Shown: in pieces, positions 11,208 through 29,765 of the stretch
Numbering within the stretch: position 1 is the stretch's first letter
How the letters are laid out: each line of letters opens with the position of its first letter
Assembly: GCA_032249135.1 (NCBI GenBank)
Contig: JAVVGL010000006.1
Coordinates: 39,879 to 103,878, forward strand
DNA from: Candidatus Calescibacterium sp.
Lineage (GTDB): Bacteria > Calescibacteriota > Calescibacteriia > Calescibacteriales > Calescibacteriaceae
Direction of reading: 5' to 3'
DNA: 64,000 bases
Notes under the pieces: generated by a model
Told to the model about the DNA's origin: nothing
The model's input: only the letters and a program-made list of their open reading frames with translations
Database searches by the model: none
Program-made: the position numbers and the translations under genes

Positions 11208-11840
11208 ATGCGGAAATCGTTATCAGAAGAAGCTACTGAGGTTTTAGAAAGTAAGCTCGGTAAGGCGGAGGCGAAAGCTTTTGTGAGAGCTGTTGATGAA
11301 GTAATATCACAAATTACTGAAATCAAATGGAAAACAACAAAAGATGAGCTCCTTAGTGCAATAAGAGAAGAATTCATAAATAAAAATGTCTTTGAAGAAA
11401 GAACATTAGCAATACAGCAAAGTATTAACTCATCAAAGTTAGAGCTTAATGCAAGGATAGACGGGGTTAATGCAAAGGTAGACGGAGTCAAAATGGAGCT
11501 TAATGCAAGGATAGAAGGGGTAAGAGCAGAGCTTACTGAAAAGATAGACGGAGTTAAGATGGAGCTTAATGCAAGGATAGATGGGGTTAATGTAAAGGTA
11601 GATAGTATCAAGGCAGAGCTTGATGCGAAGATAGAAGGAGTCAGAGCAGAGCTTACTGAAAAGATAGAAGGAGTTAAGACGGAGCTCAGTGCAAAAATAG
11701 ATAAAGTAAAGTCAGACCTTGAAAGACAAATACAAAAAACTGATATGAAGCTTAATTTCCTTATTGTATTGACTATTATTGCCATTACTCTTATGAACCC
11801 AGTTGTAGCTGAAATCATAAAATCACTTCTCAAATTTTGA
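11208..11840 (+). CDS. DUF1640/CCDC90-like coiled-coil protein with C-terminal membrane anchor
   Basis: Short head, TTKDEL neck, 11-residue repeats (ELNARIDGVxx, ELTEKIEGVxx), C-terminal TM helix. Confidence 0.7.
   Translation: MRKSLSEEATEVLESKLGKAEAKAFVRAVDEVISQITEIKWKTTKDELLSAIREEFINKNVFEERTLAIQQSINSSKLELNARIDGVNAKVDGVKMELNARIEGVRAELTEKIDGVKMELNARIDGVNVKVDSIKAELDAKIEGVRAELTEKIEGVKTELSAKIDKVKSDLERQIQKTDMKLNFLIVLTIIAITLMNPVVAEIIKSLLKF
11440..11715 (+). repeat. In-frame tandem repeats (33-nt units with occasional 21-nt units)
   Basis: Recurring gagctt(aatgcaagg/actgaaaag)ataga(c/a/t)gg(g/a)gt units. Confidence 0.85.
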
Positions 11841-11897
11841 TGACATAATTTTTTCAAATAATTAGAAGGTTCTGAAAACTTGCTCTAAATTAAAAAT

Positions 11898-12722: not shown

Positions 12723-12791
12723 TAAAATCTTGTTTTTTCTTCCCAAAATGATTATTATATATAAAAATTGCTAAATTTTTTTGTAAAAGGT

Positions 12792-15700
12792 ATGACAGAA
12801 CAAAAAAAATTGGGAGCAATTTTACTCAATATTTTCATCGTCTTATCTTTACCACTGATAATAAAAGGGGAAGAAATAAAAAGAGGAGACACTGATAACC
12901 AATATGAAACAAAAGGAGAGAACACCTATGACCAATATGACGAACAAAGAATAATGCGCGAATTAGAGCTTTTACCTATACTATCTCTTGAAAGAACAAG
13001 GAGAGAAACGGGAAGAGCGGGAAGAATGTATATTGGGTTTGCTGATGAAGTTTTCAGAGGTAGAATTATTCCGAAAGTTGTTCCAAAAACCGCAACGCTC
13101 GCAATTGATGGCATAGGCTGCGGAATATCAACCGGAAATATCATCGGTCCTTCCTCAACTTGGGGTCAATCATTCCAAGCAAGGTGGGGATATGAAGTAC
13201 TGAATGTTGGTTGTCCAAACGACGATGCCGGTTGGTGTGACGATAAAGACTGGCCAGCACCATCTGCTTGTGTTGATGCTAACAGAGATTATATTTGCGA
13301 CTGCGGATGGGGCGGATGCGTTGGAGGTTGTGATGATATAAACGCTCCGGACTGTGGATATAGAGAAAGGTTAGGGGATATGACGGGAGAATTTGAAGGG
13401 CTTTTACAATATGTAGCCGAACGACTAAAAGAAGCTCTCGTTCAGCGAGATTTGAGAATACTTGTAAATAAATCTCTTTGTGGAAAAGGTAGTTGTGTAG
13501 ATACACCGTGGCCACTTGACCACCTCTGCCTCACAGTAAATCAAGACCCAACAGATAATGCTAATATCAGGGAGAGATGTTGGGCACCGAGTAAGCCTTT
13601 GGACCCCTGGGTTGTATACTACAACAAAACTTTTGTTGAGGTATTTCCAAATCCCGGTAAAGGAACAATTGATGTTATTTTACTTTTGTGGGCAGAAGGA
13701 GGTGTTCCAGGGGACCCTCAAGGTATCCCTGTGAGTAATAGAAGTAATGGCAACACAAATCCATCAAGTGATGTTTGTGTTGAGTTGAGGTTGTGTGGAG
13801 ATTCAAGTGGTGGTGGTGCTTTCTATGCCGATGCCATAGCTATAAAAGCCTCTCTTTATCTTGTGGTTCAAGATAACTTAGTAGATGTCTGTGTAAAAGA
13901 TACTGAACTTGATATTATAAATTCTCATGTTTACCTTGAAGGTTGTGTTGCTGGGTGTTTCTGCGATGCCAATCCAGAAAGCCCGCCTTTGGGTAATCAG
14001 AGTTTATCGGATGAAGGATTAGAGGAGACACTTGGGGCCTCAATTGCTCCTGGAATTGATAATTTCCTTCACGGAAACTGCCCAGGTGATAGAGCCTTAT
14101 CTTTGTGCCCAAAAGTTGCTTTCAGAGGTTGGGGTTACCGGGGACCCTGTGCCCCATCAATAGGGTGTAGTTTTGATGCAACAACTGGTGAGATGTCTTG
14201 TACTTGTCAGGTCTGCCCTGAAAATAATAGCTATGGACCTTGCCCCCCTGGTTCTGTGCAGTGCACTCACGGAATTTTTCCTATTGATTTAAATGAGCTT
14301 TTGGGAGGGAGAAGCTTTTCTGTTACGCAATATTGTGGGAGACCTCAACATTTTGCTGGTGAGAATGCCGCGCACCTTGACCCTCTCAAATGTTGGCCAG
14401 GACACTACAAAGCAGGCGACCCAACTCCACCTCCTCCTTTTAACAACCCTCTTACATGGTATGGGACTATGAGCTGTGGTAAGGGGATATATGATATTGG
14501 TTGTTATATGTCAAAACCTCCTATTTTGACTGGAACCGGTTGTTCTGCTCAGATTGATGCGGCAATAAGACCTCGTGATTTGTCTCAGTCTTGCTCTGAG
14601 ATGAGTTTTGACGGCTATCCTGCATCTCCTACCTTTTCGGGGACATCTGGTTTTGTTGTAAGAGCCGCATTTGATGCTGATAACTACACGCCTGAACCTC
14701 TTCTTTTTCCTCAGTCGGTCCCAGCGGCTGGTACAAACTGCAATATTCAGGGAGATGGAGTAGATGATGACAATGGCTACTGTTCTGTTTCAATTCCTTT
14801 TACTTTTAATTTTTACTTTGGCTCATACACTTCTATGTGTATTTCTACTAATGGTTTTGTAAGATTTGGCGCGGCAGGTGCAGATTGTGGAGACGCAACT
14901 CCCGACCCCATCCCGTATACTAATACTCCTAATGCGTGGGCTGGACCGATGTGGGCAGACCTTTCCATAGAGAACGAGTATCTCTACTATGTCTCAGAAG
15001 TTGTTCCAGCAACTTGGATAGATGCTTACTCTTGTAGAATCATGGGAGCTATGGATGTTGGGGCGAGCGCGGGCGACCCGTTAGATGATACATTAGTTGG
15101 AAATGTAAATTCTGCTTGCGCCGGCTCAAATATCTGTGGCGTCTCATCCCTTTGCAACGATGAACATTCTGAACCATCCTACACAACATACAACGACTGT
15201 TCATATAACCAATCCATAGGATGGAGTTTTCCATTTTTTGGTTCAAATTTCTCAAATGTATGCATAAGTTCTAATGGTATAATATATTTTAGGAACGATG
15301 GAATATGTCCAGCAGGTGCTTTGAATATACCAACTTCACCAGCAGCCGGGGGACCTAACTACTCAATAGCAGTCGTATGGAAAGACCTTGACCCCCTCAC
15401 AATGACCTCAGATGAAGATTGCAGCGGGTGTGCAAGTTGTTCTTTTCTTTGCACCGGGCATGATAGGCACAGAGGGGAGTTTAATGGCTTTGGTTCGGTC
15501 TACAAGCATTACATATCTGGCACATGCCCAACTTCCGGTGGTTCGTGTTCCGCTTTGGTTATAACATGGTATAGGGTTGTAGATTTTAATGTCCAACCAA
15601 ATAATGCAGATAACTGCTCTGATAATAACGATTCAAATGCAGATTGTACAAACTACGCAGCTGGAAGAGATTGGTGTGAAGTCAGGGAAGGAAGTAACCT

Positions 15701-18700
15701 CTATGACTGCGGTTGTAATCCAGATTGTGGCGCATATGGTGGTTGCAACGCCACAGACGACAGCAACTGTAGGAGAATTTGCAGGTGTTGTATTCAGGGT
15801 TGTCAGGATCAGGCGAGGGCTGGGCAACCGAATGAATGGGAAGCTTATAAGCGGCAGGTTCAAAACACAAACACATTTCAGGTCGTCTTGTGGCAAGATG
15901 GAACAATTGATATAAATGTAAAGGAATTTACAGATACCGCCGGAAGCTGTAATGGAACAACGCCACGCGCTCGTATGTTTTTGAAACAAAATTCATCAAG
16001 ATATATTGAGTTAAGCATAGCACCGAATAAGTCTTATAGAATCTTCCCCCTGGGTTATGCAAACACAGTTTGTGGTACCGGGCGAGTAATATATGGTTCT
16101 GGAACTTGCACAAGAACAACCGGTTCAGGAACTGCAAACTGTGTCAGAGTCAGATGGGAAAATGTCCATGTGAAAGGGCAAGGCATATGCATAACTATGG
16201 AGGCAAGAATTATGCAAGATTACACGGGGACGGGAGCGGGAGCAGGTTCAAACTACGATATTGTGTTTTTCATGGAAAGATTTGAGGTTCCGATAGCTTC
16301 ACTATCTCCGGAGCAAAGGAAACAGCTGGCAAGACTATCAGACTTTACAAGGAGCCCCGGTGTGGAAAACGCTGCCGGTGATGTGGGAGCTTATGCTTAT
16401 ATACCTCCTGATGGGAATGGTTTGGTTATGAGGTGGCAAGGTCCGTGGACATACTGGATTGGTGTGGGTATATCACAAGATTTGATGACTGACGCATCAA
16501 ACATGCTATACTCTGGGGTGATGTGTCTTTCTGCAAATGTGGGCGGAGTTAATACTGCAGATACCCAAAAATACTACGATATTTTTACTACAATTTTACC
16601 GTTTAACTTATCATCAGCCGATTCTGCAAAAACACTATTTCCATTTATCACGAATTATTGCGATCCGGATGGTCAGGTTGAGTTGAGGATGAAACCATCT
16701 GGTGTGACGCAAGCGAGCGCAAGAACAGGCTTGCAAATCCCATCTGTTTTAATTGCAGGCTCTACCCTTGATACATTCCCTTATGAGGGAGCGCTCGGAA
16801 TTTCTGTTCCACAAACATGCACCGAGTGGGGGTTTTCACGATGTGCAGATGTCGTCTTCTCTTTCCCGAATTTCAAAGCGGAAATTTGGTGCCACAAAAA
16901 CAACCTCCCAACCTTTGCGTGGATAAAAGACGGTATAACAGGTCCTCCAACCTATGTTTTGGGAATAACATCAGATTGGTTTATCGGAGCCGATATAGAA
17001 TACGCTTACATATCAACGGGAATTTCTATGCAGGCAAAATTGCAGGATGCGTCAGGAGGAAATGAATATGTCTATGTGAAAATAGCCGATGTCTCCTGTG
17101 CAATAGCTTCGGGAGATATACTTGAATATTGGATAAGGGTTGACCCAGCTACAAGACGCTGCGCCCTTGATGCATATTTCTCGGGGGGAGGCGTTCTGAG
17201 AAATGTACCAGGACTTACCGACCAGAACGGAATACCTGCTCACCCTGATGGTAATTTGCAGACTTTCTGTCCTGACCCTAACTGCACAAAGACTGCACCA
17301 AACACAAGTTGTAGGTGCCCCGTACAAGATTGGTATAGGAGAAGAATATCGCTTTCTAGTTTTGCTGGGCAAACTTTGCAGGAGCTTGCAATAGGTGTTG
17401 AGGAAGATGCAAACGGTGGATATTCTTGCCAAATAATGGGTATTAAGGTTTTAAATAGTTCCGGTGGAGTAAAATGCTCTTTTTCTGGTCTAAGAGATAT
17501 GGGAATATGGGCTCGAGGAGGGATAAGCAGCATGCAACGATATTCTTACTCTGTTGCTGGGAACACCATAGGAGATATATTTATTTTTGCAGATGTGAAA
17601 CCGAACCCAAGACAGATTCAATCTTCTGTTTTGCTACCAAGTCAAATTATAGGAGGAATCGCAGACATTTTCGGAGATATTCTCTCTGGTTGGTTGCAAG
17701 GCAGAATAAGAACAAAATTCAATATACCTTTGGAAATAAACATGCCTTTGCATTTTGTTTTCAAAAAAGTCAAACCACAAGGACCTGATATTCAAACAGA
17801 TGAGACTAACTTTAACCCATGGCTAAGTTATGGTTATCCTCCCGGAAATATAGCTCCTGATTACTTGGTTATTTACATAGATAGATTTTTGGGGAATATA
17901 GATGTTGTATCTTTGATGATGGGTGGTCTTTCTTTGGCTCCACCCGCACCTTATCGTAGGTCTCAAGTTTCAACATCTGAACTTATATCTTTTGATATTC
18001 CAGAGTGTTCCGGGAAAGGTGAAAAATGCGTTCTGACTCCTGATGTTGCTAAAAAATATTTCACAAATTTTGGTCCAAATAATGTGAATTTGAGATTTGG
18101 AGGAGGTGTTATAAAATACTCGTGGAGGAAAAATGGGAGTATGTGGAAGCTTCCAAATTCTGCCGCACAAAGCACACTTGATATAGGTACCTTGCTTGAA
18201 GGACCAAACATAATAGAGATAGCTCCAATATTAGATGATGGGTACTTTTACGATGAAAATCCAGTTATTTTGGCTATATATATGGATACCCAACCACCTT
18301 ATGTTAGTTTGAGAGGAGGGAGGGAGCTTGAAACAGGTATTATGTATTTTTCCGGTGTTCCAGTGTTTGTTTTAGAATACTATGATATGAGCGGTGAGGT
18401 TTTCTGGTCTTATAAGATAGATGATGGTGAGTGGTCAGAATGGATAAAAGGAGGAGTTGATAATAACGGTAGCGGAACAGGTAGAATAAAAGCAGATGTG
18501 AGCAAAGGCACACATGTTCTTTACCTGAAATTGAAAGATAAATGGGGTAATGAAACATCAATTTCTAAACCATTTTATTTCGCAAAGGAGGGAGTTTTTG
18601 GATGCTCATCGCTGAGCGAAGTTGAAGTCCAAGAGATTGTATGGAAGGGAATTTCTTTTGCTATTTTCTTCTTCCCAGTTTTAGTCGTAGTTCTTATGGT

Positions 18701-18740
18701 AAAAAGGAACGGTAAAAAAACGGTAAAAAGAAAGAAATGA
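12792..18740 (+). CDS. Giant Cys-rich secreted/surface protein: BPI/LBP-like scaffold with NIDO-like and CBM-like inserts, Ig-like domains and a C-terminal Cys-TM-basic sorting signal
   Basis: ORF of about 1980 aa; ATG at 12792 after AAGG (ORF track starts at 12768); signal peptide; ends GVFGCSS...ISFAIFFFPVLVVVLMVKRNGKKTVKRKK. Confidence 0.75.
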   Translation: MTEQKKLGAILLNIFIVLSLPLIIKGEEIKRGDTDNQYETKGENTYDQYDEQRIMRELELLPILSLERTRRETGRAGRMYIGFADEVFRGRIIPKVVPKTATLAIDGIGCGISTGNIIGPSSTWGQSFQARWGYEVLNVGCPNDDAGWCDDKDWPAPSACVDANRDYICDCGWGGCVGGCDDINAPDCGYRERLGDMTGEFEGLLQYVAERLKEALVQRDLRILVNKSLCGKGSCVDTPWPLDHLCLTVNQDPTDNANIRERCWAPSKPLDPWVVYYNKTFVEVFPNPGKGTIDVILLLWAEGGVPGDPQGIPVSNRSNGNTNPSSDVCVELRLCGDSSGGGAFYADAIAIKASLYLVVQDNLVDVCVKDTELDIINSHVYLEGCVAGCFCDANPESPPLGNQSLSDEGLEETLGASIAPGIDNFLHGNCPGDRALSLCPKVAFRGWGYRGPCAPSIGCSFDATTGEMSCTCQVCPENNSYGPCPPGSVQCTHGIFPIDLNELLGGRSFSVTQYCGRPQHFAGENAAHLDPLKCWPGHYKAGDPTPPPPFNNPLTWYGTMSCGKGIYDIGCYMSKPPILTGTGCSAQIDAAIRPRDLSQSCSEMSFDGYPASPTFSGTSGFVVRAAFDADNYTPEPLLFPQSVPAAGTNCNIQGDGVDDDNGYCSVSIPFTFNFYFGSYTSMCISTNGFVRFGAAGADCGDATPDPIPYTNTPNAWAGPMWADLSIENEYLYYVSEVVPATWIDAYSCRIMGAMDVGASAGDPLDDTLVGNVNSACAGSNICGVSSLCNDEHSEPSYTTYNDCSYNQSIGWSFPFFGSNFSNVCISSNGIIYFRNDGICPAGALNIPTSPAAGGPNYSIAVVWKDLDPLTMTSDEDCSGCASCSFLCTGHDRHRGEFNGFGSVYKHYISGTCPTSGGSCSALVITWYRVVDFNVQPNNADNCSDNNDSNADCTNYAAGRDWCEVREGSNLYDCGCNPDCGAYGGCNATDDSNCRRICRCCIQGCQDQARAGQPNEWEAYKRQVQNTNTFQVVLWQDGTIDINVKEFTDTAGSCNGTTPRARMFLKQNSSRYIELSIAPNKSYRIFPLGYANTVCGTGRVIYGSGTCTRTTGSGTANCVRVRWENVHVKGQGICITMEARIMQDYTGTGAGAGSNYDIVFFMERFEVPIASLSPEQRKQLARLSDFTRSPGVENAAGDVGAYAYIPPDGNGLVMRWQGPWTYWIGVGISQDLMTDASNMLYSGVMCLSANVGGVNTADTQKYYDIFTTILPFNLSSADSAKTLFPFITNYCDPDGQVELRMKPSGVTQASARTGLQIPSVLIAGSTLDTFPYEGALGISVPQTCTEWGFSRCADVVFSFPNFKAEIWCHKNNLPTFAWIKDGITGPPTYVLGITSDWFIGADIEYAYISTGISMQAKLQDASGGNEYVYVKIADVSCAIASGDILEYWIRVDPATRRCALDAYFSGGGVLRNVPGLTDQNGIPAHPDGNLQTFCPDPNCTKTAPNTSCRCPVQDWYRRRISLSSFAGQTLQELAIGVEEDANGGYSCQIMGIKVLNSSGGVKCSFSGLRDMGIWARGGISSMQRYSYSVAGNTIGDIFIFADVKPNPRQIQSSVLLPSQIIGGIADIFGDILSGWLQGRIRTKFNIPLEINMPLHFVFKKVKPQGPDIQTDETNFNPWLSYGYPPGNIAPDYLVIYIDRFLGNIDVVSLMMGGLSLAPPAPYRRSQVSTSELISFDIPECSGKGEKCVLTPDVAKKYFTNFGPNNVNLRFGGGVIKYSWRKNGSMWKLPNSAAQSTLDIGTLLEGPNIIEIAPILDDGYFYDENPVILAIYMDTQPPYVSLRGGRELETGIMYFSGVPVFVLEYYDMSGEVFWSYKIDDGEWSEWIKGGVDNNGSGTGRIKADVSKGTHVLYLKLKDKWGNETSISKPFYFAKEGVFGCSSLSEVEVQEIVWKGISFAIFFFPVLVVVLMVKRNGKKTVKRKK

Positions 18741-18795
18741 TAGAAGGAAAAGGAGAGCCAAAAGAAGAAGATTAATAGATAAATAAAATAGATAA

Positions 18796-20082
18796 ATGAT
18801 TTTCGGTTTAGTCTTTACCGCAAGTCTTATAAGGGGAATATTAGAAATACTACTTCTGACAAAAATAAGAGATATTCGGGAAATTTTTCCTTTTTTGTCT
18901 TTTTGGATTATTTGGTATTTTGTAGTCTTTTATACTGCATCAGCTATCATAAGCTTTTTTGCAAAAGAAAAGCTTGAAGATGTCATGAAGTTCATTTCAA
19001 AGTTTTTCTTTTTGATTATTTTGCCACCTATTGTAGATAGATTTTTGTTTGGAAGAACACAGCCTTATTTTTATGAAAAACCAGAAGATATTCTGAAACA
19101 TTTTTTCTCTTTTTTCCTCACAACAGAAAGAGTAGGTAAGGCTTTGGTTTTGAATGTTCTTTTCATTCATTTTTTTGTCTTTTTGTACACTTTTTTTGTT
19201 GTCTTCAAAAAAGAGAGGGTTTTCTCAAATTTTTCAAGGGCGTTCCTCAAAGCGTTCGCAAGAGCTCTTTTATGTTTCATCTCACTTTATACTGCTTCAA
19301 GTTTTTACGCGGTAGGAGGGTTTTTACCCGTAATTTTCCCTCTTGTTCCTATACTACCCTCGGTAGCTATACCATTTTATAATTCTGTTCATGGTTTTTT
19401 CTTTTCTGTTTTACTTTTTTTTCTGTTTTTTATAACACAAGCTGAAAAGTTGAAATTAGCCAAAACAAATCTAAAAAACTTTCTTTCTTTTCTTCATAGT
19501 TTTGGGTTTAATGCAAAATATATCATACCTTTTTTGAGCGGATACATATTTTCTGGTTTTGGGATTTGGTATTTACCTACATTTTTTTATGTAGGTATTT
19601 CTGTTTTGTTTTTTGATGGCTTCAAAAGGGGCTCACAAATTTTTTTCCCTATTTTAGCAATAGCTTTATTTTCGCCTTACATCCTTGTTTCTTTCCTTAT
19701 TTTAGTTTTGCTTCGCTACATCAGAGAGTTTTTTATTAAGGAGTTGGAGAGTGAGGATTTGGGGGAGCGTTTTTGGAACTTGAGCTTGGTTGTTTCGTTT
19801 TTCATGGGTTATGCGGCAGGAAAAATATATATTTTCTTCATTATAGATTTATTCCTTACTTTGTTTTTTTTATGTTTAGCTTTATTTTTGAATAATTTAT
19901 ATCTTTCTTTTTTGGGTTTTGTTCCGTTTTTGATTTTAGGAAAACCAGAATTTATTTTCCTATCTTTTGTTGGATATATAGTTTGTGTTTTATCTCAAAG
20001 GTACTGGAAATATGCAGTTTTGGCTAGTGTAGCTTTGATTTACTTTGTTCTGAAAAATTTAGAGTTTTGGTTTGGATTGTAA
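18796..20082 (+). CDS. Polytopic membrane protein; C-terminal half possibly a degenerate UbiA-like domain
   Basis: Very hydrophobic; IRGILE and LIILPPIVD...YFY motifs; NLKNFLSFLHSFGF...SGYIFSG resembles the N-terminus of 9196-10056. Confidence 0.55.
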   Translation: MIFGLVFTASLIRGILEILLLTKIRDIREIFPFLSFWIIWYFVVFYTASAIISFFAKEKLEDVMKFISKFFFLIILPPIVDRFLFGRTQPYFYEKPEDILKHFFSFFLTTERVGKALVLNVLFIHFFVFLYTFFVVFKKERVFSNFSRAFLKAFARALLCFISLYTASSFYAVGGFLPVIFPLVPILPSVAIPFYNSVHGFFFSVLLFFLFFITQAEKLKLAKTNLKNFLSFLHSFGFNAKYIIPFLSGYIFSGFGIWYLPTFFYVGISVLFFDGFKRGSQIFFPILAIALFSPYILVSFLILVLLRYIREFFIKELESEDLGERFWNLSLVVSFFMGYAAGKIYIFFIIDLFLTLFFLCLALFLNNLYLSFLGFVPFLILGKPEFIFLSFVGYIVCVLSQRYWKYAVLASVALIYFVLKNLEFWFGL

Positions 20083-20097
20083 AAAAAATAAGGAATT

Positions 20098-22548
20098 TCA
20101 CCTATTTCCTACAAGAAAAGAGGTTATGGAATCTGATAAGTTTATATTTCTTTTTTTTAGAGCCTTTTGAATTATGGCTAAAACATCGCTCAAATCTTGT
20201 AGATCTGGATTTTTCCATCCACATACCGCTTGAATTTCGTTCTGAATTTCTTCGCTTTGAGCAAAATTTAATGCCCAACACTTTTCTATAATAAAAGAGC
20301 CAGAAAAAGATGGGTCTTTGAACTTCGCATAAATTGCCCCCGCTATTCCATCTTTTTTCAGCACATCAAAATGCTCAGTATCTTCGTCGTCTTTTTCAAA
20401 ATCTATTTGAAATACTGGAACTATTCCTTGCTCAGTAAATTGTAAAGCTGTTTCTGGTAGGTAATCACGCAGTGGCTTTGTTATAAACTTTGATAAACTT
20501 ATTTTTATGAATGTTATAGGGAGTTGGAATTGCGGTAAAGGAAAGAAATTTATGAGTTCTGATACCTCAACAAATTCTGATTCTACTTTATCAAAAAAAT
20601 CAAGCGTTTTCACAAGGTCAAATGGAACTTGAGCGAAATAAATTTTTTTGTTCTCTGTGTTCTTGCATATTACATTTTCAGAGGGACAAATTGGAGCATT
20701 ATCATATGCTTTCCCAAGTTCTATTTTTGCTCTTTCAAGATTCTCTTTGAACGAATTTACAAGTTCGTTCACATCTACACCTTCTTTGAAATAAAGAGAT
20801 TTATCAGAAAATGTTGAAGGTATAATTTTTATTGTCTCAGGACTCACTTGACCTTGAACGATTTTTTTCAATCTTTCTTTGAAATCAAGATTATGACTTA
20901 GGATATATTTTGTTATTCCGTAAATGAGCCTTGTGATTGCAGATATAAAATTTGCTTCTGCATATCCAAAGTATCCAGATGTAATGAAAAAATCAATTTT
21001 CTCTGGAGTTGTCCATCGCGCATTCTGAACCCTCTCGTAAATATCAGAAAGTTTTGAATGCAAATACTCTACTATATCAAGTCCAAAGCTCGGTATCTGT
21101 CCCCCAATTACGCTTTTTACATCAATTATTATACCTATGATGTTAGATTCAGGTTGACGCCCAAACCTTCTTTCAAACTCATCAAGATACTTTATGCTTA
21201 TTTTCAAATCCTTCTTTAATGATTTCAGCATGTAAGATATTATGCAATCTTTTTCATCCTCTTCACACAAAAATATTTTGAGATTGAGGTTTTCTCCATA
21301 AGGTACGATCAAATCAAAGAAAGGGAAAAAGCCGTCTTTTTCTACCGTCAAAGTTATCCCATAAGGATACATTTTGACAACAACTATAAATTCTCCGGAG
21401 CTATCTGTTATTTTCTCTTCGCTTCCTTCACCAATAATTACTTTTGCCCCCGGGATTGGATTACCTTTTGAATCAAAAACTTTACCGGTTATGAGAATTC
21501 CCGATGAAAGAACAATTTGAACTTGCGAGCTTTCCTCAGTCGGAGTTATAGAAACCTGCTCTGGGAAAAATCCCTGCTTCATCGCATATAAAACTCGTGG
21601 TTTTTGAGCGGGCAAATTCATATACGCTATACCGTCGCTCCAAGATGACATCGCAAGAAAATCATCTCCAGCATAAATTATTACTCCTCCTTGACCATCT
21701 TCTGAAATTGCCTTTACCAGAAGTGTAATTTGAGGGAAAGACAAACCAGAAAATGGGTCTGTTCCTTTTTTGATTTCAAAATCGTTATCATATCCATCTC
21801 CATCTGCGTCAAAATCTTTTTCATTTGGAATTGAATCAGAATCTAAATCTTTTGGATTGAAAGGAATATCATATTTGAACTCATGTGTTATGGAGCAGGG
21901 GAAGTTAAATATGAACCAGTTTTGAGTTATAAACCTGAAACTTGCTCGCTGATTCTTACTCCACGAAAATAAGTCCGGAGGACATATTATGGGAGCGAAT
22001 TTTTCAGGGTTCTGAATAGGTGGTTCATCAAGAACAGTATCTCCGGTTATTACAACATCTACCGAGTTTATTATAATTCCTGCATCTTGCAATTCGGAAA
22101 AGATTATTTTGTGTTTGCCATAAGGTGCGTAGAGTGTATATTTTCCATCTTCTTTTACGGGTGCAAAAAATGGTAAGAATGCAACTCCAACGAGTTTGGG
22201 AAATCCCCGGAAATATGCTCCTCCCCATATTTTTGCTGCACCTGTTATATTTATGTTAAAATGTGTATCTTTTGTGATTTCAATTTCATCTGAGAACGCA
22301 AGATTGTCTTTTTTTGCGTAAATGAGGTATTTGCCTTTTTTTAAGCTGAATTTGAAATTCCCATTTATATCGGTCTTTTGCGGTGGTGCTCCAACTATTC
22401 CTACTTCTGCTTGAATTACCGGTTCATCTCCATACAGAACTTTGCCTTCAAGTATAAAATACTCCTTTTTCCCGCAAAAAGAAAGAAAGTTTAAGGCAAT
22501 AAGACAAAAGGATATTACTATTAGTTTCTTTTTGTTTCCAAATTTCAC
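20098..22548 (-). CDS. Putative lipoprotein with carboxypeptidase-regulatory-like beta-sandwich repeats, acidic Ca-binding (TSP3-like) repeats and a helical C-terminal domain
   Basis: Signal ...LNFLSF-C-GKK; GKV...PI.GA.V...TD..G.F repeats; DLDSDSIPNEKDFDADGDGYDN...GTDP. Confidence 0.7.
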   Translation of the reverse strand: MKFGNKKKLIVISFCLIALNFLSFCGKKEYFILEGKVLYGDEPVIQAEVGIVGAPPQKTDINGNFKFSLKKGKYLIYAKKDNLAFSDEIEITKDTHFNINITGAAKIWGGAYFRGFPKLVGVAFLPFFAPVKEDGKYTLYAPYGKHKIIFSELQDAGIIINSVDVVITGDTVLDEPPIQNPEKFAPIICPPDLFSWSKNQRASFRFITQNWFIFNFPCSITHEFKYDIPFNPKDLDSDSIPNEKDFDADGDGYDNDFEIKKGTDPFSGLSFPQITLLVKAISEDGQGGVIIYAGDDFLAMSSWSDGIAYMNLPAQKPRVLYAMKQGFFPEQVSITPTEESSQVQIVLSSGILITGKVFDSKGNPIPGAKVIIGEGSEEKITDSSGEFIVVVKMYPYGITLTVEKDGFFPFFDLIVPYGENLNLKIFLCEEDEKDCIISYMLKSLKKDLKISIKYLDEFERRFGRQPESNIIGIIIDVKSVIGGQIPSFGLDIVEYLHSKLSDIYERVQNARWTTPEKIDFFITSGYFGYAEANFISAITRLIYGITKYILSHNLDFKERLKKIVQGQVSPETIKIIPSTFSDKSLYFKEGVDVNELVNSFKENLERAKIELGKAYDNAPICPSENVICKNTENKKIYFAQVPFDLVKTLDFFDKVESEFVEVSELINFFPLPQFQLPITFIKISLSKFITKPLRDYLPETALQFTEQGIVPVFQIDFEKDDEDTEHFDVLKKDGIAGAIYAKFKDPSFSGSFIIEKCWALNFAQSEEIQNEIQAVCGWKNPDLQDLSDVLAIIQKALKKRNINLSDSITSFLVGNR

Positions 22549-22641
22549 TTATGTAAAAATTTTAGTTCTAAAATTTATTTTTGTTATTACTTTTTTTCTT
22601 TTTATATTTTTGATTAAGCCGAGATTTATTTTTTTATTTTT

Positions 22642-23349
22642 TTGTTTGTTTTTTGTTTGTTTTTTGTTATGAATTTTGTTTTATATGAGTCAGCGATTTG
22701 TGTTTTGATTTCAGCTTTCGGTCTTGCTTCAACAAGGTTCAAGTTTTTGGAGCTCAAACACTATGTTTTTATTGTTTTTATATCTGCTCTTTTGGTTCTT
22801 ACAAGATACTTTTTCTCAAAACAAGAGAGCAGAATAAGGCTTTTGTCTCTTCCATCATCTCTTTTGCTGATTTTTCTTTCTTTGCCATCTCCGAAGCTTT
22901 TTTTAATTTCATTTGTTGCGCTTTACATTTTTTCAATTGAGATATTTTCTCCTTTTGAGTTTGGAAAAAAAATTCCTTTCTTGATAAAACCTGTTATTTT
23001 TGTAGTTTTTTATTTTTTGGGGTTTTACTATGTTGCAAATCCATTTTCTTTTGCAACTTATGATGCTCTTTATTATGCTCTTTTGATTGCAATTTTCGGC
23101 TTATTTTTTTCACTATCACAAAAACATTTTGCTTTCGGATTCCCGGCAGTTTTGACTTTTCCCATCTTCCACTCATCTTTACCTGTTATAGCACTATCTG
23201 GACTTACTCTTTTATCTTTATTTTTTATGAGAAAAGAGAAAAAGAACTTTTTGCCCTCTGTTTTATCTTTGTTTTTTCTCGTCTTTTTTATCTTGTACCT
23301 TTATGATGCACAAAGTATGCTCCCAGCAGGAGCTATATATATTTTTTAA
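22642..23349 (+). CDS. Polytopic membrane protein, possible non-catalytic UbiA paralogue; start uncertain
   Basis: FLISFVALYIFSIEIFSPFEFGKKIPF aligns by eye with FLISLLYVFLSILYSPLRWGKSPF of 9196-10056; no Asp-rich motifs. Confidence 0.5.
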   Translation: MFVFCLFFVMNFVLYESAICVLISAFGLASTRFKFLELKHYVFIVFISALLVLTRYFFSKQESRIRLLSLPSSLLLIFLSLPSPKLFLISFVALYIFSIEIFSPFEFGKKIPFLIKPVIFVVFYFLGFYYVANPFSFATYDALYYALLIAIFGLFFSLSQKHFAFGFPAVLTFPIFHSSLPVIALSGLTLLSLFFMRKEKKNFLPSVLSLFFLVFFILYLYDAQSMLPAGAIYIF

Positions 23350-23395
23350 TTGATATATATTTTTTGATTGATTTGATTTTTTTGCTAACTAATAT

Positions 23396-24106
23396 ATGTT
23401 GCCGCTTATACATTTGGGGTATGGAATATACATTCCTATATATCCTATTGCAACTGCTATTTCAATATCTTTGGTAGCTTACCTTATTTTAAGGGAGGAT
23501 GATAGATTTGCAGTTGAACTTGGGTTCTTTATTGTGTCTTTTATTTTATCTTCAAGAATTTTTTTGGGAAAGAAAATTCTGAATTTTTGGGAGAGCGGAT
23601 ATTCTCTCATGACGGGGGTAAGTATATCTTTCCCCCTCACACTTATTTTTCTTCTTATAAGAAAAAAAGATTTTTTATATTTTTTTGACCTGTGCTCAAA
23701 ATATGCTCCGGTGGGACTTGCCACACACAGAATATTCGGATGTTTCCTTGCAGGATGCTGTTGGGGAGTTCCAAGCTCTTTTGGTCTTGTGCCTCATCCT
23801 TGGTCACTTGCATTCAAATATACTGGATACCAAAAACTTTTCCCAGTCCAGATTTTTGAAGGTTTGTGGTGGGTGATTTCTTTTTTCCTTGTGAATAAAT
23901 CAAAAGACAAAACATTAACTTTTCTCCTTTGCCTTTTTATATCAAGACTATTTGAATATCTGAGGGGAGATATTGACCTTTTTTTCTACATAGGTAGAAT
24001 AAAAGTTTCATTTTATCAGATTTTGGCAGCTTTTTTACTCTTATCTACCGCAGCAGTAAAATTTTTATTGAGTAAGAGAAAAGAAAAAAATAAAGGGAAA
24101 AATTAA
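23396..24106 (+). CDS. Divergent prolipoprotein diacylglyceryl transferase (Lgt family), copy 1
   Basis: M.P start, SRI, W..G, D...P, RIFGCFLAGCCWG, PVQIFE and SRLFEYLRGD motifs. Confidence 0.8.
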   Translation: MLPLIHLGYGIYIPIYPIATAISISLVAYLILREDDRFAVELGFFIVSFILSSRIFLGKKILNFWESGYSLMTGVSISFPLTLIFLLIRKKDFLYFFDLCSKYAPVGLATHRIFGCFLAGCCWGVPSSFGLVPHPWSLAFKYTGYQKLFPVQIFEGLWWVISFFLVNKSKDKTLTFLLCLFISRLFEYLRGDIDLFFYIGRIKVSFYQILAAFLLLSTAAVKFLLSKRKEKNKGKN

Positions 24107-24123
24107 AGAAAAGAAAGAAAAAA

Positions 24124-24879
24124 ATGTTTCCTGTTTTGTTTCAAGTTGAAAACTTCAAATTTTATACTTCGTTTCTCACTTTACCTTTGGTATCTTTGGT
24201 TTTCATTATTTTTAGCTGGAAAAGACTGAAAGAAATAGGATATAAAGATACTGAGATAGGTCAAATTATGATTTTGATATTTGTTTCGTGGGCTGTTTTC
24301 TCACGCTTATATCTTATAGGTAAAATACCTTTCTTGCAACTTATTTCTGTTTGGGAAGGGGGACACTCTATGATACTGGGAATAATTGGACCGATGATTA
24401 TAACGCTTGTATATTTGCTTTTGAGAAAGAAAACAATTTCTGATTTTTTTGATGCTATGGTACCTACCATAGCTTTATCGTTGGCTCTGTATAGAATTTT
24501 TGTTTGTTTTCTTGTGGGTTGTTGTTTTGGTAAGCCTTTCAGGTTTGGTTTGGTGTTTCACGAAAATTCGGCTGCCTATCTTTATTTTGGTTCAAAGCCC
24601 ATTCACATCACACAAATTTATGAGGCTTTCTTTATGGGATTAACTTTCTTTTTACTTGAGAAAATCAAATTCAAAGAAAAGGGAGATAAAACCTTGTTTT
24701 TTCTTTTCATGCTATCTTTAATGAGGCTTGTAGTAGATAATTTCAGAGGAGATATAAAAGAGTTTATGATAAAGTTTGAGATTTTTGAGTTGCAGGGAAT
24801 AACTTTATGGCAGGTCTTATCTATTTTTCTTTTTTTGTGCGGGGTTTTTTGGTTAAGAGTTCTCAAGATAAGAACATAA
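24124..24879 (+). CDS. Divergent prolipoprotein diacylglyceryl transferase (Lgt family), copy 2
   Basis: MFPVLF start, SRLY, WEGG, D..VP, RIFVCFLVGCCFGKP, HITQIYE and RLVVDNFRGD motifs. Confidence 0.82.
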   Translation: MFPVLFQVENFKFYTSFLTLPLVSLVFIIFSWKRLKEIGYKDTEIGQIMILIFVSWAVFSRLYLIGKIPFLQLISVWEGGHSMILGIIGPMIITLVYLLLRKKTISDFFDAMVPTIALSLALYRIFVCFLVGCCFGKPFRFGLVFHENSAAYLYFGSKPIHITQIYEAFFMGLTFFLLEKIKFKEKGDKTLFFLFMLSLMRLVVDNFRGDIKEFMIKFEIFELQGITLWQVLSIFLFLCGVFWLRVLKIRT

Positions 24880-24916
24880 TTTTTGCGTGTGGATAAATTT
24901 CAAAACAACCATCGTA

Positions 24917-25597
24917 TCAGACTAACTTTTTAAAATCTGTCCCAATCAAATATTCAGGTTTTATTTTGTGTATTTCATCAGGGGAAAAAAAATCAAATAA
25001 ATCAGGTTGGGTGAAAAAAAGCTCTGTGAGGTATTTTGCTCCTAACTCTGCTGGAACTACTCTTTCTATATCTAAACTTGATATTAAATTTTCTCCTCCA
25101 CACAAAAATATCCTTTCTTTTTCTTTTTTTATCTTTATTTCTTCTTTTTTTTCATCTATATCAAATTCGTATTCTGCGCAATAGAAAATATTTTTTTTTC
25201 CACTGAAAAGATGAAACTTTATTGTTTCCTTTTCAAGGAATTTCCCTAAAAAAAGGGCTATCCATCTGAAAGTTAGGGTAGTGTAAATGGGTATTTTTAA
25301 CGCAAAGCTTATACCCTGTGCATAAGCAATCAAAGCTCTCAAAGCCGTAAATGAACCCGGACCCCGAGCTAATACAATCTTGTTTATATCATCAAACCTC
25401 ACGCCTGATATTTTCAGAGCAGAATTTACTACATCTGCTATAAATTTTGTTCCATAAAATTTTTCTGATGATACTGAACTTTGAACTTCTATTTCTTTTT
25501 TTCGTTCATTAGCTATTGCAACAGAAATTGTGTTTGAAAAACTAAAATCAAAAAAAATTGTTCTTTCTTTTCCCAACATAAAATCAGATAAAAACAC
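24917..25597 (-). CDS. tsaB: tRNA threonylcarbamoyladenosine biosynthesis protein TsaB
   Basis: GPGSFTALR...AQGI motif and C-terminal P.Y. Confidence 0.82.
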   Translation of the reverse strand: MFLSDFMLGKERTIFFDFSFSNTISVAIANERKKEIEVQSSVSSEKFYGTKFIADVVNSALKISGVRFDDINKIVLARGPGSFTALRALIAYAQGISFALKIPIYTTLTFRWIALFLGKFLEKETIKFHLFSGKKNIFYCAEYEFDIDEKKEEIKIKKEKERIFLCGGENLISSLDIERVVPAELGAKYLTELFFTQPDLFDFFSPDEIHKIKPEYLIGTDFKKLV

Positions 25598-25733
25598 CGA
25601 AAATAACCTATTTTTTACATAGGTATATTAATTCTTTTAAACTCGTTAAAATCGGGATTTTTTTTTCAGGAATGATTATATTTTTTTTTGTAAAAAAGGA
25701 GTGATTATATTATAAATAAGGGGGTAAAAGTAT

Positions 25734-28700
25734 ATGGCAAAGCATATAATAAAAAGTTTGTTTGGTGAGAGAAAAAGTAAAAAAGTTGAGCTTTTTGCTT
25801 CTTTCTTATTTACTTCTTTCTTCTCGTTGTTGTTGCTGATATTATTTCCTCAAAAGAAATCTTTTGCTACACCTTTACCCGTTACAACATTTCCCTCTTA
25901 TCTGCAAAACTCGGTTGTTTTAAGATTAACAGGGTGTTTAAATCAGTGGCTGCAACAAAATTTCAACTACCTTTTTGTAGATGATGGTGTCTCAGGTTCA
26001 GGAGATGAGCTATGTCCTGCTGGGCAATATCAAGGAACTCTTGGTTCTTTCTCCACTGTTTCTGTTCCGTGTGGATGGAAGACTTTGAACATGCTAAATG
26101 CTCTGATTATGGATTTACTTGACAAACAGAAGAAAATTCAAGGCTTAACTCCGCCTGCTGATGATGACCCAGTTATGTGCTGTTGCGATCCTACAAAAGA
26201 CTCAGAAAACTGCACAGGACCTGCTACTCCCGGTTGTCCCTCTCAGTTTCCTAATAGAGGAAAATGCATGGCTTTAAAACCGGAAGCTACAAATTACTTT
26301 GTAGTTAATTTCCTTGACACCTCAGTTACTCCTAATATTATCCGAGGTTATCAGGCATGGGGTGTAACATGGGTTGGAGCTCCGGGTTCAACAACAGCTT
26401 ATTGGTCAGGGCTTTTAGACCAGTGTCTCCCTATACCTCTGCTGGGTAATTTGTGTCTGAATTTATCTTTAAACGATGTCTGCAATGCCACAACATGTGG
26501 TCCCATCTTAAATTACAACGGAACTACGCATCCAGGTAACTGTTGGTACACTCGTACATCGGGAGGGGATCCCGCTAATAACTGTGATGATGATACAACA
26601 AACGGATATCGAAGCGCAAACCGGGATAACTGGATTTTAAGATATAACCCTGTTGGTGGTGTCTCTCTAAATTTCTCTGTCGGTGAGAGCGTTGGTGTTT
26701 CATGTGGTATGGGTGGGGCTCCTTACAGCTATAACGGTAAAATTTTTACGGGAAATGAAGGGTTTATTACTATTGAGCTGTTTTTAAATCCTATTTCTAT
26801 AGATATAGATGCTGCAACTCCATCTGCAGGAAATAGAATAACATTTACTGCTTCTTCCCCTCCACCACTTGCTACTAATGTTGCTCCTGGGAGAACAGAT
26901 TGTAATGATTCTCAGGCGAACCAGCAAGGTGATTGCTATGTTAGAGCTTATCTTCGTGCAAGAGGAGCTTTGAAACTCAAAGTTGGTGCAACTTTATATT
27001 TGGAACACAGAACCGGCTCTTGGCCGCACCTACAAGATGTTGGAATAGCCGTAAGAGAAATCAACTTTTCAGAAGCTCCCTGGATATCTCTTGCGTTGGA
27101 TTGGACCTGGTCTGAACAAAGCCCGAACTGCACAGCAACAAGTACTCTTTGTGTCAGAAAAAATATAACTGTGAAAGCGATGAAAACTATTGAATTTATA
27201 GATGTTGTTTTGAGAGGTCTTTTCAGATTTGCTTACATTCCCTCGGGGCTTCAACAATATTTTGGTCCGGTTGTTTTTGATATAAGTGGTCTTACACAGA
27301 TGAAAACCTCTTACTTTTTCCCAACCTGGGTCAGACCAATTACAACAGATGATTTACTTATAGATATAGCCCTGGGTGGAGACCCGTATTTGGGAACACA
27401 AGTCCTGCGGTCTAAATCTTGTTTTGCAAGCAACGGAGTGGGTCCTGGAACCAACCGAAATGAGCTTTATCTTATAGGTTCTGCTATGATAGACCTTGAC
27501 CTTTTCAGGAGAGGAACAGATTGGAAAAATACAACGCAGTGGTATGATCACAGAATTACTTCTTGCGGATATGTTCCACCTCCTTATGGCAACCATCCAG
27601 CCCCTTCTATGATTGCAGGTCCTTCTTCGTTTTTCCAGCTCCCGCACGCAGGTTCAAGAGATTCACTTTCTCTTACCTCATGTGAAGCTAATGGGACATT
27701 TGTTGGTCTTTCAATTTTCCAGAATGTCTTTACATATTTGGTTTCCGATATTGCAACATCTGGTTTAATGTGCCTTGCAATATCTCAAAAAGGAGAGGGA
27801 TTTGCGTCAGGACTTCCTTTGCCTATTTGGACAGTTGGACAAATGAAGCTTATGATTCCTGACCTTTATAACTTCCTTGAATCAGAGTTCGGCTCTAATG
27901 TAACAGATATGCCTATGATTTTTGTATTCAAACCGAAACCATACGCAGCTTATCCCGGATTCCCTCAAACACCACAAGCTTCGTTTGCAAATGATTTGCC
28001 TCCAAATACTGTTGACCCACTCCCAATAACTGCTGATGTACTACTTACACTACCAAATAACGATTTTGAAATTTGGGTTGATGTTGATAACGAACTTGAA
28101 CAGTGGGGACTTGGACCAGGGGAAGTAGGGGGAACTTGTACTTATGGTCTAACTCCATCTCCGGTAGGTTGGTGTACTGCTTTCCCTACTGGAACAACTC
28201 CTCCGGCTCAAGGAACAATAGATGTGGGTCCAGTTGGAAATGCATTTCGTAATAACTTTCCAGATTGCGTCTCTTTTATTGATTGTGATTCAACAGTAGG
28301 AAATCCATCTGATAGGGTAAGGGAAAGAAGGTTTATAGCTCAGTTTAATGTTGGGGTAACTTTGGCTTTGGATTTGAATTTCCTTGGCTGCGGAAGAGGA
28401 ACATATAAAGTTTTTGGGAACCTGGCAGCTTACGGTTTCCCATCTACACTCGCAGGTGGTGGATGGTATAACCCTTGGAACCCAGCAACAACCGGAAACT
28501 GCACAACCGTAAGCCACCTGAGGAGAGTAGATTTGACTTTGGGGATGATTTCTCGTGTTGGATCAGTTGATGTTACAAACGATTCAGGAACCGTAAAAGT
28601 TTATTATCCGTTTTCTAATAATACATTTGCTGGTTATCTTGCAGATTTTATAGCTGTTATACTTTCTGGTGCTTTGGCTCTTGACGCTCAGCTCGGATAT

Positions 28701-29765
28701 ACACTCTCTGCAATTTTAGACCCAGACGACAACTTATACAGCGCAACGCCTGCAAACAATAATGTTGTTCGTATAGGAGGACACGCAAGAGGTCAAGGAG
28801 CTGATAGACTTATTCACACATATATCGCAAGAGACGATGTGGGGAACAGTGACTCAGATCCATCAGGTTATCCACAACAGTTTCTCACAATTGCAATTGA
28901 TTTTCAGGGGTTTATTCATCCTAACTTCTTTTATGGGGTTATATCTCAGCTTTTGAGTGGTTCTACTAATATATTTGGTTCTGCTCCAAGATTTGTTGCT
29001 GATGGGAATGGTGAGGTTAATCTTGAATCTTTGAACCCGCTTGTTGAAGTTTGGCAGAAAATAAGCAACGGAGGAGAGTATTTCATAAGTTTCAGAGATA
29101 TTCAGGAGTTTGTGAAGAAAATAGAAAAGTCTGGACTTATTGTTCCTATGAAAAAGAATGAAAATGGCGGAATAGATGATTTCCCACCAGAAACTGTGGT
29201 AGAATATGTTCAAGCTTCTCAACCCAAAACTATAATAAAGCTCTCGTGTGTTGATGATTATACAAAGCCAGATAACTGTTGGTTTGGATGGAGATGGAAA
29301 GGCAAGATGTGGCAGCCCTGGATTCAATCTAATACAATTGAAATAAGAGGACTTCCGGATGGCGAGTATGAAATTGAAGTGAGAGCCCTTGATGAAAGAG
29401 CTATTCCTGATATTACCCCTGTAACCGTAAAATTCGTGGTAGATGATACTCCACCATCTATTTTCTTCCCGAAAAAAGCTTTCTTCAAAAGAGGAGATGT
29501 TTTGCGAGTTGAACTTTGGGACTACATAACAAAACCAGACGAGATAGAGGTCTCATACAAGATTGATAACTCTGATTGGTCAAGCTGGCAGAAAGTAGAT
29601 TTCAACGATAAAGGTTTAGGTATAAAGCTTATAAGACTTCCTGATGAAGTTGGGACACACAAAGTTATAGTAAGAGCCAGAGACAAAAAAGGCAATATTG
29701 AAACCCGTGAATTTTACTTTGATATAGGAGTTCCGGCAAAGGGAATTTTCTCCTGCTCACAATAA
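25734..29765 (+). CDS. Giant Cys-rich secreted protein, paralogue of 12792-18740 (BPI/LBP-like scaffold plus Ig-like domains), ending at GIFSCSQ
   Basis: 1343 aa; signal peptide ending SFA; shared SG[LV]MCL, D..PP, SYKID...WS.W and G.H......D..GN motifs. Confidence 0.75.
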   Translation: MAKHIIKSLFGERKSKKVELFASFLFTSFFSLLLLILFPQKKSFATPLPVTTFPSYLQNSVVLRLTGCLNQWLQQNFNYLFVDDGVSGSGDELCPAGQYQGTLGSFSTVSVPCGWKTLNMLNALIMDLLDKQKKIQGLTPPADDDPVMCCCDPTKDSENCTGPATPGCPSQFPNRGKCMALKPEATNYFVVNFLDTSVTPNIIRGYQAWGVTWVGAPGSTTAYWSGLLDQCLPIPLLGNLCLNLSLNDVCNATTCGPILNYNGTTHPGNCWYTRTSGGDPANNCDDDTTNGYRSANRDNWILRYNPVGGVSLNFSVGESVGVSCGMGGAPYSYNGKIFTGNEGFITIELFLNPISIDIDAATPSAGNRITFTASSPPPLATNVAPGRTDCNDSQANQQGDCYVRAYLRARGALKLKVGATLYLEHRTGSWPHLQDVGIAVREINFSEAPWISLALDWTWSEQSPNCTATSTLCVRKNITVKAMKTIEFIDVVLRGLFRFAYIPSGLQQYFGPVVFDISGLTQMKTSYFFPTWVRPITTDDLLIDIALGGDPYLGTQVLRSKSCFASNGVGPGTNRNELYLIGSAMIDLDLFRRGTDWKNTTQWYDHRITSCGYVPPPYGNHPAPSMIAGPSSFFQLPHAGSRDSLSLTSCEANGTFVGLSIFQNVFTYLVSDIATSGLMCLAISQKGEGFASGLPLPIWTVGQMKLMIPDLYNFLESEFGSNVTDMPMIFVFKPKPYAAYPGFPQTPQASFANDLPPNTVDPLPITADVLLTLPNNDFEIWVDVDNELEQWGLGPGEVGGTCTYGLTPSPVGWCTAFPTGTTPPAQGTIDVGPVGNAFRNNFPDCVSFIDCDSTVGNPSDRVRERRFIAQFNVGVTLALDLNFLGCGRGTYKVFGNLAAYGFPSTLAGGGWYNPWNPATTGNCTTVSHLRRVDLTLGMISRVGSVDVTNDSGTVKVYYPFSNNTFAGYLADFIAVILSGALALDAQLGYTLSAILDPDDNLYSATPANNNVVRIGGHARGQGADRLIHTYIARDDVGNSDSDPSGYPQQFLTIAIDFQGFIHPNFFYGVISQLLSGSTNIFGSAPRFVADGNGEVNLESLNPLVEVWQKISNGGEYFISFRDIQEFVKKIEKSGLIVPMKKNENGGIDDFPPETVVEYVQASQPKTIIKLSCVDDYTKPDNCWFGWRWKGKMWQPWIQSNTIEIRGLPDGEYEIEVRALDERAIPDITPVTVKFVVDDTPPSIFFPKKAFFKRGDVLRVELWDYITKPDEIEVSYKIDNSDWSSWQKVDFNDKGLGIKLIRLPDEVGTHKVIVRARDKKGNIETREFYFDIGVPAKGIFSCSQ

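Follow-up and report, generated by a model that had tools for sequence, protein, structure and literature searches.

Predicted BPI/LBP/CETP-like double-TULIP cores in two giant cysteine-rich proteins of Candidatus Calescibacterium

Introduction

Lipid carriers of the TULIP type play a central part in the lipid traffic of eukaryotes and in the sensing of lipopolysaccharide (LPS), and there is debate over where they originated. According to the preprint on the bacterial protein TipA, a BPI-like double TULIP is defined by the order helix A, elongated sheet and helix B, laid out twice around a central sheet. An earlier annotation made from sequence alone (the first-pass annotation) had proposed that two giant genes of Candidatus Calescibacterium sp. 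encode BPI/LBP-type TULIP scaffolds. Here we follow up this proposal for the two genes, A (P0001/P0030) and B (P0002), which lie on a 64,000-nt stretch of contig JAVVGL010000006.1 (assembly GCA_032249135.1, positions 39,879 to 103,878 of the forward strand); we refer to this whole stretch as the window, and all coordinates below are positions within it. Structure models of both proteins matched BPI, LBP and CETP ahead of other known structures, and from these models we conclude that A and B are most likely BPI/LBP/CETP-like at the level of fold.

The view that TULIPs are known mainly from eukaryotes, which the first-pass annotation had adopted, is outdated, as bacterial TULIPs are established (PMC6791001; TipA preprint). 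They include P47/OrfX, YceB/DUF1439, DUF4403, DUF2140 and DUF2993 (PMC6791001; PMC5507252). Levine (2019) suggested that the TULIPs of diderms may carry lipid between membranes, and proposed a bacterial origin of TULIPs on the basis of small, remote families (PMC6791001). Calescibacterium is described as an aerobic, Gram-negative, flagellated heterotroph of streamer communities at ~80°C, with a G+C content of 33.7% (PMC11696919; PMC4791363), and the Calescamantes are described as Gram-negative, with genes for beta-oxidation (PMC4791363). In the literature, we found nothing on proteins such as A and B in Calescibacterota, nor on giant decorated double TULIPs.

Structure models of A and B

Both open reading frames (ORFs) and every sequence string quoted in the first-pass annotation were present in the window, with residue 656 of B falling at base 27699 and residue 1230 of A (numbered from a TTG start) at base 16455. 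The ORF of A can begin at 12768 (TTG) or at 12792 (ATG) and ends at 18740; because a public homolog of 1982 aa with 100% identity (P0030) begins at the ATG, we take this as the start (Table 1). As had been claimed, both proteins are Cys-rich, with 84 Cys in A (4.2%) and 33 in B (2.5%), clustered in particular stretches.

We modeled residues 46–1165 of B from 22 family sequences (model numbering is the protein residue number minus 45) and residues 88–655 of A (TTG numbering) from 11 sequences using AlphaFold2, and compared the models with 350,542 PDB chains using Foldseek. For the B core, the top match was CETP (2obd; E = 1.3e-5, probability 1.00, TM-score 0.38), followed by BPI (1bp1, 1ewf) and LBP (4m4d), these three proteins making up ranks 1–5 (E = 1.3e-5 to 2.3e-4, probability 0.66–1.00). 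Only five of the at least 500 matches had E ≤ 0.001, and each was CETP, BPI or LBP. All of ranks 1–10 were TULIP proteins, with OrfX1-OrfX3 and OrfX2 at ranks 6–10 and 12 (E = 3e-3 to 0.3), and Mmm1, JHBP, E-Syt2, TMEM24 and SPLUNC1 appeared at lower ranks. The N-terminal model of A likewise matched LBP (E = 5.2e-3, probability 0.94), CETP (0.96) and BPI (0.90), which held ranks 1–4 and 6 (E = 5e-3 to 2e-2, probability 0.90–0.96); Takeout, BPIFA1, latherin, JHBP and SPLUNC1 came next, and ranks 1–17 among the matches listed were all TULIP proteins. Since the modeled regions of A and B share no detectable sequence similarity, the two Foldseek results are independent of each other. Pore-forming folds (MACPF, CDC, aegerolysin) and Lpt-like folds were rejected as candidates, with Foldseek E-values of only ~0.3–1.5.

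The order of helix A, five or six long strands and a long helix B occurred three times in the models, twice around a central sheet in B and once in the N-terminal region of A, and the long strands alternate hydrophobic and polar residues. In these low-confidence models, the order of elements in B is thus that by which a BPI-like double TULIP is defined, and the N-terminal model of A contains it once, together with a sheet. In the first domain of B, we found a strand (61–65), helix A (67–81 and 114–129), a Cys-rich insert of 175 aa (130–305), long strands (310–456; five in model numbering, 265–278, 291–316, 359–382, 388–399 and 406–411), a helix B of 22 residues (476–497) and a sheet (513–592). 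The second domain of B comprised a strand (657–662), helix A′ (664–675), strands with inserts (728–946) and a helix B′ of 21 residues (964–984). In the first domain of A (TTG numbering), a 19-residue helix A (208–226) was followed by six strands (287–402), two of them 20–24 residues long, by a 21-residue helix B (415–435) and then by a sheet. In the B model, predicted local distance difference test scores (pLDDT) were best, at 65–87, in the long strands, in the central sheet, and in the first strand and helices; the core elements of B were thus both among the best predicted and among the best conserved.

These predictions support the BPI/LBP-type TULIP scaffold of the first-pass annotation, in that a helix-wrapped sheet was predicted and TULIP proteins were matched. 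The strand–helix landmarks on which the proposal had been built mostly fell on predicted elements, namely the VVLRL strand and the GCLNQWLQQNFNYLF helix, the VGLSIF strand and the NVFTYLVSDIAT helix, the MIFVFKP strand, and the EFEGLLQYVAERLKEALVQ helix, but KTATLAIDG was not predicted as a strand.

Table 1. Positions of features of A and B, and of genes for lipid enzymes, in the window.
Feature	Position	Strand	Basis
Gene A (P0001/P0030), giant Cys-rich membrane-tethered protein, 1982 aa from ATG	12792..18740	+	
A, N-terminal hydrophobic segment, signal or anchor	12804..12872	+	Kyte-Doolittle scan, sequence
A, first TULIP-like domain and following sheet with Cys-rich inserts, residues ~106–602	13083..14573	+	AlphaFold2 model, Foldseek
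A, ~570-aa insertion between TULIP-like halves, two NIDO-like modules (sub-threshold)	14685..16412	+	Pfam
A, putative second TULIP-like domain, residues ~1222–1700, with ~200-aa insertion	16431..17867	+	Inferred from homology to second domain of B (hhalign, BLASTP)
A, C-terminal linker and tandem Ig-like (Y_Y_Y-like) domains common with B, closing with G-[VI]-F-x-C-S	17859..18608	+	
A, C-terminal transmembrane helix and basic (Lys/Arg) tail	18639..18737	+	Sequence, hydrophobicity scan
Gene B (P0002), predicted to be secreted, no anchor, 1343 aa	25734..29765	+	
B, signal peptide, residues 1–45	25734..25868	+	Sequence, hydrophobic window
B, first TULIP-like domain and central sheet, residues ~61–592	25914..27509	+	AlphaFold2 model, Foldseek
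B, second TULIP-like domain, residues ~657–1075, with inserts	27702..28958	+	AlphaFold2 model (pLDDT mostly 30–65 here), Foldseek
B, tandem Ig-like (Y_Y_Y-like) domains, end GIFSCSQ	29259..29762	+	Pfam Y_Y_Y, 22.6 bits
UbiA	9196–10056		
Two tandem divergent LGT-like genes	23396–24106, 24124–24879	+	35 and 63 bits against NCBIfam Lgt cut-off of 334

Confidence of the models and sequence-level searches

Several observations weigh against a TULIP fold and a lipid role for these proteins. Both models are of low confidence: the B model had a mean pLDDT of 52.4 and a predicted TM-score (pTM) of 0.56, with 608 of its 1120 residues below 50, and the N-terminal model of A had a pLDDT of 42.4 and a pTM of 0.46, with 387 of 568 residues below 50. 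Helix B of the first domain and most of the second domain are among the low-confidence parts of the B model. The TM-scores to BPI, LBP and CETP were only 0.2–0.38, with root-mean-square deviations of 7–18 Å. The alignments behind the models were shallow (effective number of sequences ~2), and AlphaFold may have fallen back on a known fold that suits the pattern of helices and strands. Pfam searches returned no TULIP-type family for the whole proteins (E ≤ 1), for eight segments (E ≤ 10) or for eight homologs (E ≤ 1), NCBIfam returned no TULIP family in A or B, and searches of the PDB with phmmer and with profiles returned no BPI, LBP, CETP or other TULIP protein. The ESM Atlas held no usable match and no stored model for either protein. 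Finally, there was no conserved lipid-related neighbor in related loci.

Normalized by target length, the best TM-scores were 0.38 for B (to CETP) and, for A, 0.21–0.23 to BPI, LBP and CETP and 0.45 to the single TULIP of Der f 7. A TM-score of ~0.5 or more is conventionally taken to indicate the same fold, a level that neither model reached against BPI, LBP or CETP. The large inserts and the low-confidence geometry may explain these low scores.

The proteins, segments and homologs also lacked matches to the Pfam models of YceB/DUF1439, DUF4403, DUF2140, DUF2993 and P47/OrfX. By sequence, then, A and B are not members of the BPI/LBP/CETP families of Pfam (LBP_BPI_CETP and LBP_BPI_CETP_C). The sole domain hints that we obtained at this level were NIDO-like modules in the middle of A and Y_Y_Y Ig-like domains in the tail that A and B share.

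Relation between A and B and domain layout

The first-pass annotation had called A and B paralogs, which could be shown for their C-terminal parts but not for their N-terminal halves. BLASTP aligned the two C-termini at 29% identity across 168 aa (E = 1e-14), and profile–profile comparison aligned B 1049–1342 with A 1690–1939 (probability 98.9%). Further upstream, BLASTP gave a weak match at the "second-domain start" highlighted in the first-pass annotation (E = 0.032), where further pairs were also similar (A/P0037, E = 0.01; P0034/P0037, 0.068; P0034/B, 0.11), and hhalign profile–profile comparison aligned B 657–781 with A 1223–1366 (probability 48%, E = 1.8e-4). The long hydrophobic helix at B 966–981 paired collinearly, if weakly, with A 1620–1635 in the profile–profile comparison. 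Between the N-terminal halves, we detected no similarity using hhalign (best E = 0.26). The paralogy of A and B is thus demonstrated only for their C-terminal 690–760 aa, and it is from the weak homology to the second domain of B that we predict a second TULIP-like domain in A. A packing prediction between the first domain of A (residues 108–525 of the model construct) and its second domain gave a score of 0.00 in a run without controls, which neither supports nor opposes a packing of the two halves against each other.

The ~570-aa insertion of A occupies the position of the short linker of B, and is also present in the homologs P0033 and P0034. The NIDO model (PF06119; threshold 25 bits) scored 20.7 bits on segment 640–1215 of A, and 19.7 and 14.6 bits in P0033 and P0034, respectively. 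In B, a helical linker joins the second TULIP-like domain to two Ig-like domains. The Y_Y_Y model (PF07495) scored 22.6 bits in this tail against a threshold of 26.6, and reached 30.0 bits over two stretches, above the cut-off, in the homolog P0024; a precomputed PF07495 assignment exists for three of the 28 relatives of B. In a PDB profile search, the tail shared by A and B also matched the FN3 tandem of NCAM weakly.

The description of both proteins as surface-anchored applied to A, which ends in a transmembrane helix and a basic tail, and failed for B, which has no such helix. B carries a 45-residue signal peptide, and there was no further transmembrane-like segment in it apart from one marginal window.

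A shared C-terminal cysteine motif

A conserved G-[VI]-F-x-C-S motif was found at the C-termini of A (18588–18737) and B (29742–29762), and in the distant homolog P0037 this motif reads S-G-C-S. In A and P0037, it precedes a transmembrane helix and an Arg/Lys tail, resembling a tripartite sorting signal. B and all of its full-length homologs terminate two residues past the invariant Cys, without a transmembrane helix. Known C-terminal sorting signals include PEP-CTERM, MYXO-CTERM and GlyGly-CTERM; we found no sorting-domain family of NCBIfam (E ≤ 10) in the last 69 aa of A or the last 39 aa of B. The motif may be a novel site of processing or lipidation, and the two LGT-like proteins encoded between A and B might be candidates for acting on it.

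Relatives and distribution

A word-indexed search of 5.8 billion proteins returned 28 relatives of B (55–100% identity) and five of A, and a search for shorter relatives of the N-terminal region of A added seven fragments. When 1.84 billion representatives were searched exhaustively by phmmer with the P0002 core, seven matches reached E ≤ 0.001, the most distant being P0037 (1146 aa, 34% identity) and P0038 (698 aa, 35%), and none of the seven provided a bridge to a known family. All named relatives of A and B belong to Candidatus Calescibacterium. In a pattern scan of one genome per species (185,579 species), we found five loci, which derive from Ca. Calescibacterium nevadense, Bacterium HR19, another Calescibacterium metagenome-assembled genome (MAG) and two uncultured MAGs. 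In these searches, A and B were restricted to one lineage.

Partial proteins of both families (P0016, P0017, P0026, P0033, P0042 and P0047; 40–94% identity) shared one locus-tag prefix in a Calescibacterium MAG. These divergent copies suggest either that one genome bin contains several copies of a rapidly diverging family or that the bin is a mixture of strains.

Genomic neighborhood and base composition

According to the first-pass annotation, A and B have lipid enzymes for neighbors. The window does contain UbiA and two LGT-like genes, but an LGT-like gene near the B homolog was kept in only one of the three distant loci with an upstream flank (L003, and not L004 or L005). The genes flanking B also differ among related loci, being TsaB and GltX in the window and in L001, and an aldo-keto reductase, a solute-binding protein or RRF at the other loci. 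As a result, the neighborhood says little about function, and the arguments that had been drawn from gene neighborhood and from a surface location are weak. We discarded the idea of an operon conserved together with lipid enzymes, because the neighbors in L003–L005 are unrelated housekeeping genes and an LGT-like gene occurs in L003 only.

Between the giant genes lies a run of polytopic membrane proteins, all on the + strand (18796–20082, 22642–23349, 23396–24106 and 24124–24879). The first of these genes begins 56 bp past A and encodes a Phe-rich protein of 428 aa without a family, the second encodes a 235-aa membrane protein of unknown family, and the last two are the LGT-like genes. Also between the giant genes, on the − strand (20098–22548), is a gene for an 816-aa protein with a CarboxypepD_reg domain, a lipoprotein-like N-terminus (“...LSFCGKK”) and no other family. 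Upstream of A, a 210-aa protein (11208–11840, + strand) consists of 11-residue-type repeats (e.g., ELNARIDGVNAKVDGVK) and a C-terminal transmembrane segment, and its Pfam matches, of apolipoprotein-like and coiled-coil type, were weak and fell short of the cut-offs; the antisense ORF that overlaps its gene (11189–11857) is probably spurious. Downstream, an 893-aa protein (40047–42728, + strand) has strong RCC1/RLD beta-propeller repeats (PF25390, 284 bits), and is followed by a 510-aa ORF without a family. The window also encodes a type II secretin (5326–7260), LpxK, FlhB, MCP, FtsA and FtsZ. The secretin together with LpxK indicates that the organism is a diderm with LPS.

G+C content was 0.42–0.45 inside the giant genes (14001–18000 and 26001–28000), compared with ~0.32–0.35 in their flanks, and over the whole genes it was 0.41–0.43, compared with ~0.32–0.39 elsewhere. 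The G+C content of the window agrees with the 33.7% published for Calescibacterium. At second codon positions, G+C (GC2) reached 0.45–0.47 in A and B versus 0.29–0.41 in ten other genes measured, while that at third positions (GC3) was slightly raised. Because the excess lies mostly at second codon positions, we rejected horizontal transfer as its main cause and attribute it to an amino-acid composition rich in Gly, Pro, Ala, Cys, Ser and Thr rather than to foreign origin.

Discussion

From the structure models, we consider it probable, with some reserve, that A and B are a lipid-binding or lipid-transfer module acting in the envelope or outside the cell. Candidatus Calescibacterium is an aerobic, diderm heterotroph of hot springs, and A and B would be disulfide-rich proteins located outside its cytoplasm. 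In each of their double-TULIP cores, the central sheet would connect two tube-shaped halves, both built from helix A, a long, curved sheet of antiparallel strands, and helix B. Decorations would sit on these cores as Cys-rich loops between the core elements, as the NIDO-like block of ~570 aa in the linker of A, and as the two Ig-like domains in the tail of both proteins. Having a signal peptide and no anchor, B would be either a soluble periplasmic protein or a secreted one. A, by virtue of its C-terminal transmembrane helix and basic tail, would stay attached to the cytoplasmic membrane unless it is processed. The hydrophobic tube would take up acyl lipids, which could be phospholipid, lipid A/LPS, fatty acids or the acyl chains of lipoproteins, and would keep them shielded from water within the envelope or beyond the cell, to be handed from one membrane to another or supplied to an uptake route. 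Stalk and docking functions could fall to the Ig-like and NIDO-like modules.

A further-reaching form of this proposal, which we regard as decidedly unlikely, is that A is an inner-membrane-tethered, CETP-like lipid tunnel that would reach the outer membrane by means of its Ig-like stalk and docking modules, and through which lipid or LPS would cross the periplasm in bulk in this deep-branching, hyperthermophilic diderm, instead of or beside AsmA/TamB-type bridges. If this were true, the BPI/LBP/CETP architecture would have arisen in bacteria, predating its use in eukaryotic innate immunity.

It is rather unlikely, yet deserves weighing, that A and B are instead structural or adhesive envelope proteins without a lipid role, such as cell–cell or matrix adhesins of streamers or components of a surface layer, and that their likeness to TULIPs is an artefact of modeling or the reuse of a scaffold. 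The low pLDDT values and TM-scores fit such an explanation, as do the tandem of Ig-like domains, the NIDO-like modules and the many cysteines, features that typify adhesins and matrix proteins; the TULIP core makes up less than half of either protein, and the divergent copies under one locus-tag prefix are what would be expected of a variable surface family. Against this, two independent models of unrelated sequences both put BPI, LBP and CETP first, the top core matches included no adhesin or surface-layer fold, and the core elements are among the best conserved and best predicted. Membrane-active antagonists in the manner of BPI or OrfX/P47, secreted so as to bind and perturb LPS or the outer membrane of other mat bacteria, whether competitors or partners, would account for BPI and LBP as top structural matches with OrfX next, and would suit a B protein that has a signal peptide and no anchor, encoded in the same window as a type II secretin. 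Since no toxin, immunity or secretion gene adjoins A or B, no partner is conserved in related loci, and A is membrane-tethered, we judge this to be very improbable. We favor a lipid-binding or lipid-transfer role for A and B.

Were this role to be borne out, a double TULIP of 1300–2000 aa with disulfide-rich decorations, hidden from all sequence methods and found in a deep-branching hyperthermophile, would widen the bacterial range of the fold. It would also supply a heat-stable model of a lipid tunnel and a testable candidate for envelope lipid handling in an uncultivated phylum. More generally, giant “hypothetical” proteins may conceal known folds that are split by very large insertions.

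Comparison with known TULIP systems

BPI, LBP and CETP (1bp1, 1ewf, 4m4d and 2obd) were the top Foldseek matches of both models; they show the same order of elements, and are secreted and extracytoplasmic. Their chains have 442–472 aa compared with 1343 and 1982 aa for the window proteins, which are 3–4 times larger and add Cys-rich loop insertions, the ~570-aa inter-domain insertion (A), the Ig-like tail and a membrane anchor (A). The window proteins also differ from this group in lacking a Pfam-level sequence match and in reaching TM-scores of only 0.2–0.38.

TipA, as described in the preprint, resembles the window proteins in being a divergent bacterial BPI-like double TULIP that bears a signal peptide and inserts relative to BPI and whose fold was missed by family annotation; it was absent from the PDB Foldseek matches. 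Unlike A and B, TipA is described there with small inserts, with at least residues 35–566 traced, and as a homodimer opened by its operon partner TipB, whereas the window proteins have no conserved partner gene, carry much larger decorations and come from a different phylum.

The other bacterial TULIP families are, in the published accounts cited above, envelope proteins with predicted or shown TULIP domains, DUF4403 being a full pseudo-dimeric TULIP. Their members, which are small lipoproteins or belong to toxin clusters, lack the Cys-rich decoration of A and B, and in the Foldseek comparison the window proteins matched the vertebrate BPI group better than they matched OrfX.

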